Source: Verrucomicrobiota bacterium (GTDB taxonomy: Bacteria > Verrucomicrobiota > Verrucomicrobiia > Limisphaerales > Palsa-1400). From it: a stretch of DNA of 15,817 nt. This document shows, piece after piece, positions 4,268-15,817 of this stretch. The notes below the pieces were generated by a model, which was not told the origin of the DNA, ran no database searches, and was given only the letters and a program-made list of their open reading frames with translations. The stretch is taken from NCBI GenBank assembly GCA_049510745.1, contig JBEKYR010000070.1, positions 1-15,817 of the forward strand. The letters are read 5' to 3'. The stretch's first letter is position 1; each line of letters begins with the position of its first letter. The translations under genes were made by a program, and so were the position numbers.

Positions 4268-5434
4268 ATGAAAGTCCTTTGGGCCTCCCTGTTGTCCCTG
4301 TGCGTTTTCTCCGCGGCCGGGGCGGAGGACGTGGCGCGCGCTTACAATCGGTTTGGGTTTCAATTGCTGGGCCAGTGCCGGCAGTCGCTGGCGAAGACGA
4401 ATTTCTTTTTGAGTCCGGCCGGATTGGGCTTCGCGTTGTCGATGGTGCAGAACGGCGCGAAGGGGGACACGTTGCGCGAGATGCGGGCGGCGTTGCGGGT
4501 GGAGGGGATTCCGCCGGCGGCGTTGAACGGCGGCAACAAGGAATTGCTCGCCCGCCTGTCCAGGCTCGATCCCAGGATCAAGCTGGAAATCGCCAACAGC
4601 CTTTGGCTGGGCAAAGAGGCCGTGATCAAGCCGGATTTCATCGCCGCCAACAAAGAGGCTTACGACGCGGAGGTTTCGAACGCCGATTTCAAAGACCCCG
4701 CCATCGTCAATCATATTAATGACTGGGTCAGCGCCCGCACCCACGGGAAGATTACGCAAATGGTCCAGGCTCCGCTCGATCCCCTGCTCCGGCTCATTGT
4801 CCTCAATGCGATTTACTTCAAGGCCGATTGGGCGGCGCCGTTCGCCACCAACCTCACCCGCGATCTGCCTTTCACGCTCGCCGGTGGCCAGGCGGTGCGT
4901 CATCCGAGAATGAGCCGCACCGCAAGTTACCGCTATCTTGAGCAAGACGGTTTCCAGGCGGTGGAACTCCCCTATTCGGACGGGTCCGTGAGCATGTATG
5001 TGTTTCTCCCCAAGGGCGGACTGGACGCCTTCCTGGGCAGCTTGACGGCGGAGAATTTCGAGCAATGGATTGGGCGGATGGAATCCCGCCGGGGCACGCT
5101 GGAATTGCCGCGGTTCAAACTGGAGAACGAATACAACCTCAAAGCCGTCCTGGCCTCAATGGGGATGCCACTCGCCTTTACGGCGCGGGCGGATTTCAGC
5201 GGGATGTCGGACGAGCCGCTCTGCATCAGTTGGGTCAAGCAGAAGACCTATGTCGATGTGAACGAACAGGGAACCGAAGCCGCGGCGGTCACGGGCATCG
5301 GCATGAGGGCGATGGCCGTTCATGTCGAGCCGCCGCCCTTTCAGATGGTGGTGGACCGGCCCTTTTTCGTGGCGATCCGGGAACGGCAAACCGGACTCAT
5401 TCTTTTCCTGGGGGCGATTTTCGATCCGCGCTAG
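4268..5434 (+). CDS. Secreted serpin (serine protease inhibitor)
   Basis: 388 aa from ATG 4268 with signal peptide (MKVLWASLLSLCVFSAAGA). Motifs 'NFFLSP', 'INDWVSARTHGKI', 'LNAIYFKADW', 'LPRFKLE', hinge 'VNEQGTEAAAVT', 'VDRPFFVAIRE...LILFLG'. Confidence 0.95.
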   Translation: MKVLWASLLSLCVFSAAGAEDVARAYNRFGFQLLGQCRQSLAKTNFFLSPAGLGFALSMVQNGAKGDTLREMRAALRVEGIPPAALNGGNKELLARLSRLDPRIKLEIANSLWLGKEAVIKPDFIAANKEAYDAEVSNADFKDPAIVNHINDWVSARTHGKITQMVQAPLDPLLRLIVLNAIYFKADWAAPFATNLTRDLPFTLAGGQAVRHPRMSRTASYRYLEQDGFQAVELPYSDGSVSMYVFLPKGGLDAFLGSLTAENFEQWIGRMESRRGTLELPRFKLENEYNLKAVLASMGMPLAFTARADFSGMSDEPLCISWVKQKTYVDVNEQGTEAAAVTGIGMRAMAVHVEPPPFQMVVDRPFFVAIRERQTGLILFLGAIFDPR

Positions 5435-6404
5435 GCGGGCCATTTGGATCAGGTTTCCTGAGAATTTCAATTCGGATTTTTTCGATATCGACTCCGAAGT
5501 GTGTGAGGACGCGCGCGGCCACGCCGTCCCCTTCGCGCAGCAGGCCGAGCAGAATATGTTCGGTGCCGACGTAGGTGTGATTCAATGCCTTGGCCTCTCT
5601 GGCGGCGAGCGCCAGGACTTTCTTGACCCGCGGCGTGTACGGAATGTTGCCGACCATCACGGAACCTGGGCCAGTACCAACCCCTTCTTCAATCGCCTTT
5701 CGCACCGCTTCAAGGTCCAGTCCAAGCCGCCGAAGAACATTAACAGAAACGCCCTGGCCCAATGCGATCAGCCCAAGCAGGAGAGACTCGGTGCCGACGA
5801 AATTGTGCTTTAAGCGAGCCGCCTCCCGCCGGGCCAGCGCCAGCGCTTGTTGGGCGTGGGGTGAGAAATTAGGCGTTTCCGGAGTCTGGTGTGACTGTTC
5901 CGTGCCAGGCTGCCTTTCACAAAGTTCCGCGCCAGGCGGAAAATGCGGACGGAGTTCCACCAGGATTGCGTCCCGGGTTTTTTCGATATCGACTCCGAAG
6001 TGTATGAGGACGCGCGCGGCCACGCCGTCCCCTTCGCGCAGCAGGGCGAGCAGAATATGTTCGGTGCCAACGTAGCTGTGGCCTAATGCCTCGGCCTCTT
6101 TGGCGGCGAAGGCCAGAACTTTCTTGACCCGCGGCGTGTAGGGAATGGCGCCGGCTATCTTGGAATCCGGGCCGGTGCCAATCTCATCTTCGACCGCCTT
6201 CCGCACCGATTCAAGGTCCAGTCCGAGCCGATGAAGAACATTAACAGAAACGCCCTGGCCCAATGCGATCAACCCAAGCAGGAGATGCTCGGTGGCAACG
6301 AAATTGTGATTGAAGCGATCCGCCTCCCGCCGGGCCAGTTCCAGCACTTGTTGGGCTCGGGGTGTGAAATTGTGCATTTCCGGCATCTGGTGTGACTGTT
6401 CCAT
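5397..6404 (-). CDS. Clp protease N-terminal-domain-only protein (two tandem ClpC N-domains, four Clp repeats, no AAA+ module)
   Basis: Two copies of 'NF(T/S)P.AQQ.L.LARREA....HNFV.TE.LLLGLIALGQGV...IPYTPRVKKVLA.AA.EA.AL.H.YVGTEHILL.LLREGDGVAARVL'. No Walker motifs. Start uncertain (ATG 6404, 6386 or 6377). The 3' end overlaps the serpin 3' end by 38 bp. Confidence 0.85.
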   Translation of the reverse strand: MEQSHQMPEMHNFTPRAQQVLELARREADRFNHNFVATEHLLLGLIALGQGVSVNVLHRLGLDLESVRKAVEDEIGTGPDSKIAGAIPYTPRVKKVLAFAAKEAEALGHSYVGTEHILLALLREGDGVAARVLIHFGVDIEKTRDAILVELRPHFPPGAELCERQPGTEQSHQTPETPNFSPHAQQALALARREAARLKHNFVGTESLLLGLIALGQGVSVNVLRRLGLDLEAVRKAIEEGVGTGPGSVMVGNIPYTPRVKKVLALAAREAKALNHTYVGTEHILLGLLREGDGVAARVLTHFGVDIEKIRIEILRKPDPNGPPSADRKSPPGKE

Positions 6405-6423
6405 GCCAGACTGCCTATCACAA
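5473..6423. repeat. Intragenic direct duplication, ~450-bp units offset by 501 bp (5473-5922 and 5974-6423)
   Basis: Long near-identical DNA runs, e.g. TTCGATATCGACTCCGAAGTGT at 5481 and 5982, and GTGACTGTTCC at 5891 and 6392. Confidence 0.95.
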
Positions 6424-6521
6424 TGCGCCACGCTGCCGCAACACCAAACCGGACGCATCCCGTTTTTTGGCAATCCCATTCTCCATAGGAGATTGTGGCC
6501 CGCCGCAGCCAAGCCCACAAG

Positions 6522-6581
6522 AATGACGAATGACGAAGCTCTAATGACGAAACAATGACGAAGCACGAATGACGAAGCCAA
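6522..6581 (+). repeat. Heptamer-period repeat (AATGACG)n
   Basis: AATGACG at 6522, 6529, 6543, 6554 and 6568, interspersed with AAGCTCT, AAGCACG and AAGCCAA units. Confidence 0.85.
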
Positions 6582-6600
6582 AACGATGCTGTTGGTCCAT

Positions 6601-11067: not shown

Positions 11068-12138
11068 TTATTGCCCCGCCTCGGTCGTGCGGGTTTGATA
11101 GGTTTTGGAAAAACCCCGGGCCGGGATGCTGATGGTGTAGCTCTTGCCCGAAGGGTCCACGGAGCATTTGATGTAATTGCCGGCGCATTTTTGTTCGAGG
11201 TTGGCGATGTACTGCTCGTCCGTGTTGTCCGCTCCGCTCTTCACGTCGCGATGCACCTGGAACATGGTTTGAATGGAGGAAACGCCGCGCAAGGTGGCGA
11301 GGGTCTCCTTGCCGCCGCCTTTGGTCGGGCCGTTGTTCATCACCGAAACAGTCGGCGCCAGGCTGCGCACCAGCAGCGGGTTGTTGCTGACATCAAAGCC
11401 GTGATGATCGACTTGATACACGTCCACCTTCCCGATGGAATTGGTCGGGCACACCAGCTCGCCTTCCATGTTCCAGGTCAAATCTCCGCCGTCGAAAAAC
11501 TTGAACGAGCCGAATTGCAGCAGCGACACGGCGCTATTGGCGTTGTCGCTCGTGTCCGCCGGCTTTTGCGTGGCCTCGGCGCAGAGCGAACTCGGCCCGC
11601 CCACGCCGGGCGGATGAACGAACTGTTTGCGCGTGCCCATGAAACGGAAGGTCAACGGGGTCGCCGCGTCGGTTTGTTTCAGGGGCAGGGTGTCGCCGGG
11701 CTGGATCACTTCGCGGCGTTCCGCTTTGAAGTCGCGGTAGGGCTGGATCAAGGAAAGAAACCGGCTGCTGTCGGCGCTGCCGTCCGGGTCGTGGCCGGGG
11801 ATGCCGTTGTCCAGCACGGTGCCGATGGGCATGAGACGGGAGAGGGGCGCCGCGCCGCCAAAGTGGTCAATATGAAAATGTGTCACGACGAGGAAATCGA
11901 TGCGGCTGAGGCCGGCGTTGGTGGCGGCGGCGTGGATGCGCGCCGCGCTCGGCCCGGTCGGCCAGCCGGTGTCAATCAAAATGGATTCGCCGGCCGGCGT
12001 GACAATGAGCGTGCCGCCGCCGCCTTCGACATCGATCCAGTAAATATCCAGGGTGGGCGCGGCCGGGGCGGAAAAAGCCGCGAGGAGGGAAAAACAAACC
12101 GCCGCCAGAGAGCGGGCGATGAGGGCGCTTGAGTTCAT
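11068..12138 (-). CDS. Secreted metallo-beta-lactamase-fold hydrolase (ComEC/Rec2-like)
   Basis: 356 aa with signal peptide. 'IDVEGGGGTLIVTP...ILIDTG', 'THFHIDHFGG' (HxHxDH), 'GGDL', 'VDHHG'. ATGA overlap (12135-12138) with the upstream gene's stop. Confidence 0.85.
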   Translation of the reverse strand: MNSSALIARSLAAVCFSLLAAFSAPAAPTLDIYWIDVEGGGGTLIVTPAGESILIDTGWPTGPSAARIHAAATNAGLSRIDFLVVTHFHIDHFGGAAPLSRLMPIGTVLDNGIPGHDPDGSADSSRFLSLIQPYRDFKAERREVIQPGDTLPLKQTDAATPLTFRFMGTRKQFVHPPGVGGPSSLCAEATQKPADTSDNANSAVSLLQFGSFKFFDGGDLTWNMEGELVCPTNSIGKVDVYQVDHHGFDVSNNPLLVRSLAPTVSVMNNGPTKGGGKETLATLRGVSSIQTMFQVHRDVKSGADNTDEQYIANLEQKCAGNYIKCSVDPSGKSYTISIPARGFSKTYQTRTTEAGQ

Positions 12139-12818
12139 AGGAATTGCAGGCTGCCGAAACAGCGGGGCAAATGGAAGTTCAATTCATCGACCGGCGCCCA
12201 CGCGGCCCAGTGCGGATGCGAGGTTTCGTCGGCGCACTTGTAGAAATTGCCCCGCCAGAGCCGGCCCCGCAGTTGCCCCAGCGGCCCCGCATAATGTTCG
12301 AGCGCCGCAAACGGGACGAAAAAATTCAGTTGCCAGCAAACCGGTTCGGCCAACTCCGGGTCGATGACTTTGGGGAGCGAAGAGCGGACGCGGATGGAGG
12401 CGCCGATTTCGGCCGGAAGGCGCGTGAATTTTTTGAATCCGCCCGGCACGCGCGCGGGGTCCTCGATGAAAGAGCACAAATGCGCGCCGCCGGCGTTCAT
12501 TTCGAGGTTGAAATAGCCCGCGCCGCTCCAGGGTTGCATGAAGAATTCCACGCAACTGTCCTTCCAGACTTCGTCCATGTAGCGCGTGCGGATCGAGCGC
12601 ACGAACTGATCGTGGACCTGGAAGATGCCGCGCAGGCCCGCGCCGCCATAGAGCAGGCGAACGCGGGCGCGCGGACGGTGCACGCCGCTTTCCGGCCGGA
12701 AATGCTTCAGCTCCGCCGTCTGGGCGTCCCGCCAGACGGGGTCGTCCCAATCGGCCGCGAGGTCCGGCAGCGGGTCGGCGCGGCGGACGGAGTAAGTTGG
12801 GAGGGCGGCCTGGCTCAT
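12135..12818 (-). CDS. Carbohydrate-binding family 9-like (DOMON-like) protein
   Basis: 227 aa from ATG 12818. 'VWKDSCVEFF', 'YFNLEMNAGG', 'WRGNFYKCADETSHPHWAAW', 'NFHLPRCFG' are typical of CBM9-like proteins. Confidence 0.8.
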   Translation of the reverse strand: MSQAALPTYSVRRADPLPDLAADWDDPVWRDAQTAELKHFRPESGVHRPRARVRLLYGGAGLRGIFQVHDQFVRSIRTRYMDEVWKDSCVEFFMQPWSGAGYFNLEMNAGGAHLCSFIEDPARVPGGFKKFTRLPAEIGASIRVRSSLPKVIDPELAEPVCWQLNFFVPFAALEHYAGPLGQLRGRLWRGNFYKCADETSHPHWAAWAPVDELNFHLPRCFGSLQFL

Positions 12819-13020
12819 GGAAAAAACTCCAAGAAAGGCTGGCTGGCGGCGTGGCGCGTGAGGCAAGAAGGGCGGTTCCGCGGCGTCAGGGCGCGGCGCG
12901 TGGCGGGATACGCGAGGGGAAAGGCGGCCATGAACATTTGCAATCTGGGTTTCACCGGATTCACGGTATTATGCTTAAGACGATAATTTTGGGCAATCGT
13001 ATTGAGATTTTTCTTTTTTT

Positions 13021-13130
13021 GGCACGATTCAGCACGATTCGGCACGATTCGGCACGATTCGGCACGATTTGGCACGATTTGGCACGATTTGGCACGATTT
13101 GGCACGATTTGGCACGATTCAGCCCGATTG
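13021..13130. repeat. Tandem array of ten 10-bp units RGCACGATTY plus one degenerate unit
   Basis: GGCACGATTC, AGCACGATTC, GGCACGATTC x2, GGCACGATTT x5, GGCACGATTC, then AGCCCGATTG. No spacers. Preceded by a T-rich run at 13008-13020. Confidence 0.98.
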
Positions 13131-13820
13131 ACGGCCGTTGCGAAGGAGTTCGAGGTCAGCCTGAGTTCGGCGGTATTGTTCGTTCAAGGCGTTGCATTGC
13201 TCGACCTGATCCTTGTCGTCGGGGTCGGCTGGAAGCCACTGCTTTTTAAAGTTGTCCCAAGCGGGCTGGCCAGCGATGCCGAGGATTTGATCGAGTTCGC
13301 GGCTGGTTTCGTCCGCGGTGAGGTCTGGGGCCTGGGATTGTGGCTGGGGTTCGGGTGCGAGCCGCCTGGCCATGAGTTTGGAGTAGTACTCGTAACGGCG
13401 CATGGAGGCAAAGGTGAGGCGGAACTCGCGCCAGGCTTTAGCGCGATCGGTTGGGGAGATATTTTGGGGCAATCGTTTGATTTCGATGAGCATGTGGGCG
13501 GCGAAGGCGGCAGCCATACGATCGGTGATGTCAGATTGGATTTGGGGGAGTTTATCTGGAGGAAGGCTCAGGAACCGCTCCAGGAGGGGGTCGCCCCGGT
13601 TGTCGTTTTTCCAATCGCGGAAGCCGCCGAGCTTCCAGTCAGAGAGGTTGGATTGATTGATAGGGGTGCCGTTAAATTCCTTTTGCAGAATGGCTTGAAC
13701 GGGGGCCAGGGAGTTAAGCCAAGCGACGAGGGATTTTGAGGGTTGGCCGTCGTCGAGTTTCCGGTTGAGTTGCTCGCGGACGGTCCGAGGAAGGCGGGCG
13801 ATTTTACCGTTACGTGTCAT
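13119..13820 (-). CDS. DUF3486 / phage Mu gp27-like protein (putative terminase small subunit, predicted DNA-binding N-terminus)
   Basis: 233 aa. N-terminus 'GKIARLPRTVREQLNRKLDDG...LVAWLN...G.PINQSNLSDWK.GGFRDW' resembles the DUF3486 pattern. SD AAGGA lies 6 nt before the ATG, 22 bp downstream of the terminase stop. The family call is from memory, not a search. Confidence 0.6.
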   Translation of the reverse strand: MTRNGKIARLPRTVREQLNRKLDDGQPSKSLVAWLNSLAPVQAILQKEFNGTPINQSNLSDWKLGGFRDWKNDNRGDPLLERFLSLPPDKLPQIQSDITDRMAAAFAAHMLIEIKRLPQNISPTDRAKAWREFRLTFASMRRYEYYSKLMARRLAPEPQPQSQAPDLTADETSRELDQILGIAGQPAWDNFKKQWLPADPDDKDQVEQCNALNEQYRRTQADLELLRNGRQSG

Positions 13821-13842
13821 GTTGAGTCCTTTGTGTTATGGG

Positions 13843-15300
13843 TTAAGGCCAGGAATCGTTGGATACCTCGCCGAACTCGCCCGTGGCTGAAGGGCGGTGG
13901 ATTTTGATGCGCGCGGAAGCCGTGGGGATGATGGATGATTCGCCGGCGCGGATGGCGAGTGCCAGGGCGGAGCAGCGGTCAGCGTGGCCGTCGTTATTGT
14001 GAGGGGCGCGGTATGAGATTTGGCCGTTGGAGCCGCTGGAGCGGTTGACGGAGTGAAGGTCTTCGCGGATGATTCTGCAAATGGGGATTCTGAGCTGGCG
14101 CCGTTCGAAGGAGATGCGGAGCTTTGAGAAAATATCGACCTTGAGGCTGTTAGTGAAAGTGCAGAGTTCGATTTTGCCGAAGCGGTGATGAGCCGGGTTC
14201 CATTCGCCAAATTGCTTGACGAGGAAGTCGCCCATGCCCACACCGGGGCCGGTGTAGTCAAAGCAGACCTTTTGGACGGCAGCCAAGCGGTGGCGGAGGA
14301 TTTCGAGTTGATCAGGGGTGCTCATGTTATCGAGTTCGAGCACTTCGACGGTGTTTGCGACGTCGCCGAGTTTGGAGTTGGTCCAGGCGACAGTGAGGTT
14401 GTGACGCCTGCCGAAGTCGATGCCCATGACGAGGGTTGAAGATGGCCGCCGGCGTTGAGTCCAAAAATCGGGAGGCTGGGAAGTGGAGGCTTCGATGCTT
14501 TCGCAGGAGGCGATGAGGTCGTAGGGCAGGAGGATGTTTTGGGTGTCGAGAAAGTTGCATTCGTACTCCTGCGCCCATCCGAGCGGGTCGTCGAGAGCTT
14601 GGCGGAGTTCCTCGATGACGACGGCCAAGCCCTCAGCGACGGCCTGATGAATATCGACGAGGTGGCAGCTCCAGGGATTGTTTTGGGGCGGGTTGGGATT
14701 GCGGGATGAATGGGAAAGATGAGGGGATTGGTTGTAGTGTTTGACCCAGAGTTCGTTTGCTTTGTTACCGATCCCATTTGGGGTGGTAATCAACCTGACT
14801 TTTTTGATTCCGCCGTTGAGGGGATTTGTGATGGAGGGCAGGATTGCGCGCCAGGTGGCGTCGGGCTGCTCAAAGAAGGCGAACTCGGTGAGCAAGACGT
14901 TTGCGCTGAAACCGCGCACGGTGTCGGGTTTGCCCGGGACAGCCACGACGCGGCTGCCGCCCGGGAAAGTGATGGTGGCGGATTGGAGGAGGGATTCGGA
15001 TTTGCCTTCGCGCCTTTCCTCGTAGGCGGCAATAGTTTTGTTGAAGGCTTTGGCCCAGTCCTTCCATTTGCGGAGAGATTCGAGGGATTGCCGTTCGCTT
15101 GGGGCGGCGATGAGCCAATGGCGCGCGCGGCCCGCTTTTTCCGCGGCGACGATTTCGCGGATGCCTTCATAGGCGCTGGCGTGGTCTTTGCCGACCTGAC
15201 GGGACATGAGGCCGTATTTCCAGCGGGAGTTGTCGTTGGCCCAACGGCGCTGGTAGGGGAGGAGGGACCCGGCGAGAGCGTTATCGAATGGCAGTTTCAT
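13843..15300 (-). CDS. Mu-like phage terminase large subunit (gp28-like ATPase + RNase H-like nuclease)
   Basis: 485 aa from ATG 15300 (alternative 15384). Q-motif 'LLPYQ', Walker A-like 'SRQVGKD', 'PDTVRGFSANVLLTEFAF' (Walker B region), coupling motif 'ITTPNG', 'WAQEYECNF', nuclease acidic motifs 'GIDFG', 'FDYTG.G', 'DGHADR'. Confidence 0.9.
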   Translation of the reverse strand: MKLPFDNALAGSLLPYQRRWANDNSRWKYGLMSRQVGKDHASAYEGIREIVAAEKAGRARHWLIAAPSERQSLESLRKWKDWAKAFNKTIAAYEERREGKSESLLQSATITFPGGSRVVAVPGKPDTVRGFSANVLLTEFAFFEQPDATWRAILPSITNPLNGGIKKVRLITTPNGIGNKANELWVKHYNQSPHLSHSSRNPNPPQNNPWSCHLVDIHQAVAEGLAVVIEELRQALDDPLGWAQEYECNFLDTQNILLPYDLIASCESIEASTSQPPDFWTQRRRPSSTLVMGIDFGRRHNLTVAWTNSKLGDVANTVEVLELDNMSTPDQLEILRHRLAAVQKVCFDYTGPGVGMGDFLVKQFGEWNPAHHRFGKIELCTFTNSLKVDIFSKLRISFERRQLRIPICRIIREDLHSVNRSSGSNGQISYRAPHNNDGHADRCSALALAIRAGESSIIPTASARIKIHRPSATGEFGEVSNDSWP

Positions 15301-15417
15301 CCGGATTGGCGGCGAGGGGCGGAAGGGGGCGGCGGGAGGGAAGAACGGCGCGGAGGCGGAGCGCCGCGAGCCGAACCCTGCCATCCCCGATGTGAAATTA
15401 TCATCATCGTTATATGT

Positions 15418-15445
15418 ACTATCACACTCTTATGTATTATGGCAA
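15418..15445 (-). promoter_or_regulatory. Candidate sigma70-type promoter for the terminase operon
   Basis: In an AT-rich patch (15390-15465). The minus strand reads TTGCCA (15445-15440), 16 bp, then GATAGT (15423-15418) preceded by TG. Partial consensus match only. Confidence 0.35.
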
Positions 15446-15653
15446 GGAGATTTTTCGGAAAAATCGCGGGGGTTAGAATCCTGCGCCTCTCCTCCGTTTG
15501 CCCAATCCGGAGCGAGAATGATGGATTGACGGTTCGGGAGGCCGCTTTGAAACTGACGGCCAAAGTCAACGGGGCAGAGAATGTTCCAAATCCTCGCCTA
15601 CGCGGCCTTACCGCCGAGCGATGACCTATACAATTTGGATAGGAGGGCGAAGA

Positions 15654-15704
15654 AGCGGTCGGCGGGGGCGCCGACCGCTGCACGCGAGGGCGCGCGCGCT
15701 CCCC
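15654..15704. repeat. REP-like double-hairpin element
   Basis: AGCGGTCGGCG-GGGG-CGCCGACCGCT is a perfect 11-bp stem. It is followed by GCACGCG-AGGG-CGCGCGC (one mismatch) and GCTCCCC, so the minus strand begins with a GGAG tetranucleotide before the palindrome, as in REP elements. Confidence 0.6.
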
Positions 15705-15817
15705 GGGATGTACTGCAACGGTTCTTAGGCAACACCTGAGGAATTCCGCGCAAGGAAAATTTGGATAAATTTTGCATGGGTCAGGTGGTCGGAAGGGCGT
15801 TGGGACTTTTGCGATGG

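Follow-up and report, generated by a model that had tools for sequence, protein, structure and literature searches.

The window analyzed here is contig JBEKYR010000070.1, a 15,817-bp stretch of DNA taken whole from the genome of a Verrucomicrobiota bacterium (G000; 5.6 Mb, 94% complete). Near one end it carries a two-gene terminase module that is a real, selected and undescribed variant of a dispersed element: a cargo-carrying member of a family built as promoter, cargo, 10-bp array and A-tract. The usual cargo of the family is a Mu-type small terminase gene (terS) or a deleted remnant, and here it is preceded by a large terminase gene (terL) copied from within the lineage. We favor, at a probability of roughly 0.45, the reading that these elements are selfish packaging-start cassettes that would bias host particles towards their own locus, a mechanism whose every biochemical step we infer. 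The parts of the module, from its 5' end to its 3' end, are the following.

15449..15465, no strand assigned: 8-bp perfect palindrome, resembling an operator and lying immediately 5' of the -35 box; its function is presumed
15330..15480, minus strand: 5' end of the element, comprising promoter and GC-rich leader
15418..15445, minus strand: sigma70-like promoter TTGCCA-16-GATAGT with a TG extension, identified by consensus match only
13843..15300, minus strand: Mu gp28-like large terminase, 485 aa in the public gene call and 513 aa if started at 15384
13821..13842, minus strand: 22-bp spacer with a Shine-Dalgarno-like AAAGGA, read from the sequence
13119..13820, minus strand: Mu gp27-type small terminase of 233 aa, assigned by homology via relatives and by position in viral loci
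13021..13129, minus strand: 10-bp tandem array of 10.9 copies, whose unit on the coding strand is CCAAATCGTG and which overlaps the stop codon of terS
12994..13020, minus strand: A-tract tail after the array, forming the 3' end of the element and common to dispersed copies

The 5' end belongs to a dispersed family of 30 copies recovered with an nhmmer profile. A 10-bp array lies no more than 900 bp downstream of 21 of them, as against 2/1000 at random and 0/30 in the opposite direction. Three cargo-free copies (one on contig C36 and two on C2) share the exact 3' end and promoter of the window element, and a promoter consensus search returned 5 sites versus 1.0 in shuffled sequence. A second family, of 14 copies, extends from a late-promoter motif to an array and ends like the terS of contig C8. 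On C22 a module with the same terL-terS order as the window stands behind a 76% copy of the early promoter, and on C8 the two genes are parted by a methyltransferase and a Pua-like gene (L002:10598-12506). The genome holds four full terL copies plus a fragment, and six matches to the window terS family; the fragments are a terL piece on C3 and a terS piece on C54. Beside a host-like terS-terL pair on C10 there are three additional, diverged copies, and the window module is one of these. From promoter to array the window element contains terL and terS and nothing else, with no transposase, and its ends show no convincing terminal inverted or direct repeats. An Rfam search returned nothing above chance, and the fold of the leader was not significant (z -1.64).

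Arrays of 10-bp period number 188 genome-wide. We also observed many short tandem repeat families (7-10 bp) that cluster between genes, their C-rich strand following the local skew, an example being window positions 6521-6586. Upstream of the terS fragment on C54 lies a type IIG restriction-modification gene (L007:4515-7976).

The first-pass annotation, made from the letters of the window, had described an uninterrupted Mu-like terL, a 22-bp gap with a Shine-Dalgarno sequence, a repeat array, and an order of terL then terS with no portal behind it. These descriptions hold: the open reading frame (ORF) runs from 13843 to 15384 on the minus strand, 513 aa from its first ATG; AAAGGA precedes the next ATG; the array is present and tied to the terS element; and reading the locus confirmed the gene order. 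The annotation also listed an array, a promoter patch and a repetitive extragenic palindromic (REP)-like piece as local features, and all three are there, each as a genome-wide repeat family rather than something specific to the locus. Its picture of a self-contained orphan has to be given up, since a virion gene set and the dispersed family occur in the same genome. That no phage surrounds the module is true locally; portal, head, tail, lysis and early genes are found elsewhere in the genome.

The smaller gene is, judged by homology and position, a Mu-type terS. Its product had been called DUF3486-like. The window protein itself has no direct match to Pfam DUF3486/gp27 (PF11985), and remote homology to gp27 is well supported via its relatives, 51 of 113 aligned homologues matching PF11985 at E<=0.1 and a remote relative passing the cut-off. 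The Atlas score for the window protein is 0.94. In 61/62 viral loci the family directly precedes terL, usually with the portal gene next; a suggested association with phage genome ends was rejected for that reason. The protein consists of a helical N-terminal domain, a helical hairpin, a tail motif LT.DE..RELDQILGI and a C-terminal extension. A fold search of BFVD returned DUF3486 at probability 0.92 and E 0.2, which we treat as a lead only, and a search of the PDB with the predicted model (mean predicted local distance difference test score 86.5) gave nothing clear.

TerL matches Pfam Terminase_6N (E 5e-7) and phrog_2 (E 6e-31) and aligns to T4 gp17. Walker A K38, Walker B E139 and the nuclease residues D295, D348 and D441 are invariant in 122/122 aligned sequences, and profile comparison of the nuclease region with terminase nuclease domains of solved structure gave matches at E 7e-4 to 1e-3. 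The Walker B aspartate position is occupied by threonine (T138) in 117 of the 122, across the whole clade and including its viral members; viral contigs with this threonine also carry MuA/MuB-like genes. T138 and N301 were considered as signs of inactivation and rejected, as both occur in viral contigs. Many Mu-like phages of the group encode TerL as two ORFs of ~305 aa and ~240 aa (L301 and many of L293-L354).

The window terL gave ratios of nonsynonymous to synonymous substitution rates (dN/dS) of 0.24 and 0.15 against its two closest resident copies, which bears out the earlier view that the module is not a decaying remnant. Against two sister orphan copies the values were 0.41-0.47, a range that reflects a shared base bias lowering dS. 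In a neutral simulation of terL at 25% divergence, 0/2000 sequences remained stop-free. The best identity among the 120 terL matches listed was 67%, and without a close relative the window itself offers neither a strain-level dN/dS nor an empty site. In a quick tree of 38 sequences, assessed by Shimodaira-Hasegawa-like approximate likelihood ratio (SH-aLRT) support without a clade test, in four genera the orphan terL copies fall beside the resident terL of the same genus (SH-aLRT 84, 84, 96 and 98), and these groupings lie on two deep terL clades. We read this as capture of terL from within the lineage.

The module is also compositionally distinct, as had been noted by eye: its GC content is 0.586 versus 0.625 in the left flank and 0.603 for the genome, and among 3163 called genes terL and terS rank 6th and 7th for C at four-fold sites. 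All eight orphan genes of this genome are among the 15 most C-skewed. High expression is disfavored as the cause, because A-ending two-fold codons are also raised in 7/8 of them. We read the skew as a sign of a long history of stable orientation relative to replication.

Arrays are frequent at solitary terS genes. An array lies near the stop codon of 34/62 solitary terS genes versus 0/32 phage-borne ones (scoring was possible for 62 of 80 solitary and 32 of 62 phage-borne loci, and two of the solitary loci look like this genome's own). Copy number ranges from 0 to 34 per family genome, with the maximum of 34 matches in G002. Five copies in G012 are 91-95% identical and mostly at unrelated sites, and seven in G016 share 73-89% identity. 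We examined 18 deletion derivatives in G002, from 20 regions fetched; 17 of them keep both ends, the other being cut by a contig end, and 11/18 share one internal deletion. Among young copies in four genomes the TerS core has dN/dS of 0.14, 0.27, 0.31 and 0.40, indicating purifying selection; the tails range from 0.28 to 1.58, and most are not under purifying selection. Of three empty-site probes, one yielded a clean empty site, another found the orthologous site in G011 to be filled, and for the third the flanks are rearranged in G011 and adjacent in the more distant G021. The clean case is filled in G016 and empty in G011; there the element takes the place of ~200 bp of host DNA, and the target is not duplicated.

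Recurrence of the order terL, terS, array in homologues had been proposed as a check. The order was not seen again outside this genome among the loci examined: a co-oriented terL was found at 0 of the best 80 solitary-terS loci, many of which lie on short contigs, and the exceptions, in which terL precedes terS in genus g7, use a different terL clade. Genera g4 and g7 (G005, G014; L074:10496-11866, L077) have this different terL clade and another portal type; in G005 a portal gene is also part of one skewed terS-terL cassette. A small gene before some solitary terS genes (L131:4743-4946, L132:3652-3852, L114) presumably encodes a KTSC-domain protein.

The same genome encodes a resident set of Mu-derived virion genes in three pieces. 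On C10 (L001) a host-like block of lipoprotein, lipase, membrane protein, gp26-like gene, terS and terL, which ends after terL, would supply lysis and terminase functions; an operon on C23 (L059) holds portal, protease, capsid, neck and tail genes; and a piece on C3 (L355) holds a repressor, a MuB fragment and Gam. Portal, protease and gp36 were assigned by family matches, the capsid by an Atlas score of 0.98, and the tail and lysis roles from position and conservation. A genome search for portal, capsid and MuA genes had been proposed; it located the first two, on C23, and in this genome neither a phage-derived profile nor PF09299 detected MuA beyond IS-like scraps. Portal_Mu is present in 14/24 family genomes, as a single match in 12 of those, and in 0/16 other families; the resident terL clade is present in 15 of the 26 family genomes that are at least 80% complete. 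The terL and portal operons are apart in seven genomes, this one included, contiguous in G016 and separated by 2.2 kb in G001. Capsid identity is 85-92% in five of six relatives and 68% in the sixth, with dN/dS of 0.045-0.092, and the terL tree roughly follows the genera, with exceptions in G001 and some g8/g10 rows. Because MuA was not found and the set is conserved in relatives, we regard it as a candidate Mu-derived gene transfer agent (GTA), known here from its genes. The suggestion that the window module is the packaging unit of a split GTA stands insofar as it links the module to a split GTA-like system; the role itself fits the C10 terS-terL pair and is not supported for the window module.

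Several observations tie the solitary genes to this resident set. In each of G000, G002, G004 and G012 the terL and portal halves share a promoter motif specific to that genome, and the late-promoter motif occurs at 20 sites, two of them before the operons, three before orphan genes and 15 before repeats. In the operon of G002 (L066:10182-10195) terS is missing from its place between the gp26-like gene and terL, and a full solitary terS (L107) of that genome stands behind the late-promoter motif; it may replace the missing operon terS in trans. One solitary TerS (L006:8420-9037) and the resident TerS (L001:8001-8579) have identical last 17 residues despite silent changes, a match seen once, in G000, by a pattern search that recovered few tails elsewhere.

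The surroundings of the module comprise the following features.

11068..12818, minus strand: host genes for CBM9-like and metallo-beta-lactamase-fold proteins, outside the element and downstream of it
15586..15730, no strand assigned: REP-like 145-bp hairpin repeat with 26 genome matches, a neighbor rather than a demonstrated part of the element
15731..15817, no strand assigned: start of an unassembled multi-copy element, sequence common to the ends of contigs C46, C64 and C76

The runs in which the window is best represented are peat metagenomes, and no RNA run was among those listed, which carries no information on expression. Contigs from four peat metagenome runs, one of which may be the source of the assembly, cover the module at about the depth of host genes, and the module is therefore real single-copy DNA. 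All of these contigs break at the array, and the joint between host genes and module rests on the assembly, as none listed bridges the two. In 3/3 relatives that have the CBM9 gene, no module lies upstream of it. The window is an entire contig, so that sequence to the right of 15817 is unreadable. A 1692-bp contig at ~4x the local depth starts at the right-edge repeat, and the element there is ~1.7 kb long, is present in ~4 copies and begins directly after the REP-like hairpin. Such a multi-copy repeat argues against, without excluding, a prophage continuing rightward; no longer contig crossing the right edge was found, in a search that possibly lacked records of this genome. Elsewhere in the window, 1098-1752 holds a nucleotidyltransferase-like and HEPN-like gene pair, probably a toxin-antitoxin module, and 5397-6581 encodes a protein that by eye consists of two Clp N-terminal-like repeats and no ATPase domain.

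A small mobile or hijacking element was among the roles first proposed for the module, and it fits the data. In the reading we prefer, the resident particle system would be switched on and the cassette TerS would bind the helically phased array as a packaging-start site. TerS would then recruit TerL, a private copy in the window module and the resident protein in terS-only cassettes, and cutting and headful packaging would start at the cassette. If so, the cassette and its flank would be over-represented in particles. Packaged cassettes could fill the empty alleles of recipients via homologous recombination, new sites would arise rarely through illegitimate or ectopic recombination, and promoter-plus-array derivatives may freeload on TerS supplied in trans. 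Published precedent includes a TerS C terminus that binds TerL and rings of 8-11 subunits proposed to wrap ~100 bp (PMC6854486, in excerpt), as well as redirection of phage TerL to their own pac sites by the TerS of Staphylococcus aureus pathogenicity islands (SaPIs; PMC6687093, in excerpt). Packaging drive would account for the selection on TerS, the array, the borrowed promoters and the shared 17-residue tail, and also for the missing operon terS of G002, the existence of derivatives that freeload and the absence of ends like those of transposons. We put forward only tentatively the wider proposal of a new minimal class of selfish element without its own mobility enzyme, with array-only freeloaders and terL-capturing autonomous forms, alongside an undescribed Mu-derived GTA of Verrucomicrobia.

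A number of observations weigh against packaging drive. No array was seen at 28/62 solitary terS copies; the arrays are mostly short (median 4.7 copies, with at least 8 in 5/76), their unit sequence varies, and some lie 5' of terS. The window terL shows relaxed constraint, with 16 changes at 225 conserved columns versus a median of 4, and it is the sole copy at this site; the trees are quick ones in which its clade has weak support (84). The solitary TerS profile cannot be aligned to the resident C10 TerS (hhalign probability 0.09), the tail alone being shared. With the queries used, neither terL nor Portal_Mu was matched in two genomes that have solitary terS, namely G022 (89% complete, with 7 terS matches) and G027 (96% complete, with 4). 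The window module does not have the shared late-promoter motif, and its co-induction with the resident operons is thus not supported. The elements sit among many unrelated short repeats of the same strand bias, and a general repeat-spreading process could therefore carry them passively. Finally, the DNA-binding domain of SF6 TerS shows little specificity for pac repeats (PMC4737164, in excerpt).

Some of the same ties to the resident set would also fit elements that serve the host, the extra terS and terL genes and arrays giving many packaging starts or tuning output, so that packaging would sample the entire chromosome and spread would be under host-level selection. The late and early promoters shared with the resident system, the common TerS tail, the G002 operon that lacks terS while a solitary terS remains, and the purifying selection are all compatible with such an accessory. 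A copy number that varies from none to 34 among family genomes, sites that are not conserved, the frequency of broken copies and the amplification of a non-coding deletion derivative fit it poorly, and we regard it as unlikely.

Unlikely as well is an anti-phage decoy, in which stand-alone TerS, and TerL, would poison or misdirect the packaging motor of infecting Mu-like phages and ectopic recombination among repeat islands would spread the repeats passively. Free Mu-like phages use the same TerS family as the solitary genes, tandem and diverse terS copies occur, and restriction-modification-like genes stand beside two copies. No PADLOC model (library of 2023) was matched, however, and a decoy leaves unexplained the terS-linked arrays, the amplified non-coding derivative and the intact terL derived from the resident copy.

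We consider it distinctly improbable that the elements are non-autonomous transposons moved by a host HUH transposase, of the REP-associated tyrosine transposase (RAYT) or IS200 type, with the terminase genes as passengers. The genome has seven Y1_Tnp matches, REP-like hairpins adjoin several copies, four G012 copies have a sharp 5' boundary, and the C-rich strand of the arrays lies on the locally C-rich strand in 51/67 cases, an orientation bias. Yet terminal inverted or direct repeats are lacking (in 4/4 G012 copies neither terminal repeats nor 8-bp target duplications were found), the single empty-site case shows host DNA replaced, and a passenger would need a separate reason for purifying selection. 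Decay of repeated Mu-like prophage insertions is largely refuted and very improbable, for while the C3 and C54 fragments, the long branch of the window terL (0.52 versus 0.19 for C10) and an unreadable right flank lend it something, the low dN/dS (0.15-0.24) and stop-free reading frame, the intact catalytic residues, the gene order reversed relative to phages, the ends common to cargo-free copies and a multi-copy element rather than a unique prophage at the right edge all speak against it.

A standing question about GTAs is how they withstand cheaters able to bias packaging. The genomes studied here appear to hold a candidate Mu-derived GTA plus dozens of elements that resemble packaging cheaters, which, if true, would account for a large class of the repeats found between genes in this lineage, itself abundant in peat and soil. 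Should the mechanism prove wrong, selected multi-copy solitary terS genes, each with an array, are still absent from the literature searched. That literature, in which subscription papers and supplements were outside the scope, described neither a Verrucomicrobia GTA nor a solitary-TerS element, and the available parts of PMC4737164, PMC6854486, PMC7617512, PMC13626063 and PMC6687093 likewise mention neither. According to the available part of PMC6854486, GTA packaging of host DNA is regarded as random and GTAs have no known packaging sites; the prediction of packaging drive is directly checkable by virome sequencing.

Among known systems, the resident set resembles GTAs of the Rhodobacter capsulatus type (RcGTA; PMC6854486, in excerpt) in being conserved, mostly single-copy, roughly congruent with host genera, free of a transposase match and under purifying selection (capsid dN/dS 0.05-0.09), and differs in being Mu-derived, found in Verrucomicrobia and known from genes alone. 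The elements recall SaPIs and other phage-inducible chromosomal islands (PICIs), in that a TerS encoded by the element is proposed to work with the TerL of a helper and to initiate packaging at the element's own site (PMC6687093, in excerpt). We do not place them among SaPIs or PICIs, since the window element has no integrase, replication or excision genes and no att sites, the family measures 0.3-2.5 kb as opposed to 14-16 kb, a chromosome carries many copies, the helper would be a resident domesticated system, and some copies carry their own terL. Both module proteins are homologous to Mu gp27 (PF11985) and gp28 with catalytic residues kept, whereas the module has a reversed order, no portal, its own promoter and array, and two genes from different phage sub-lineages. 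As in miniature inverted-repeat transposable elements (MITEs) and the REP-derived REPINs, considered here with HUH elements by their general properties, there are short non-autonomous derivatives that arose by deletion, retain both ends and have multiplied. Unlike those elements, they showed no terminal inverted repeats or target duplication, and what their full-length parent encodes is a packaging protein, not a transposase.

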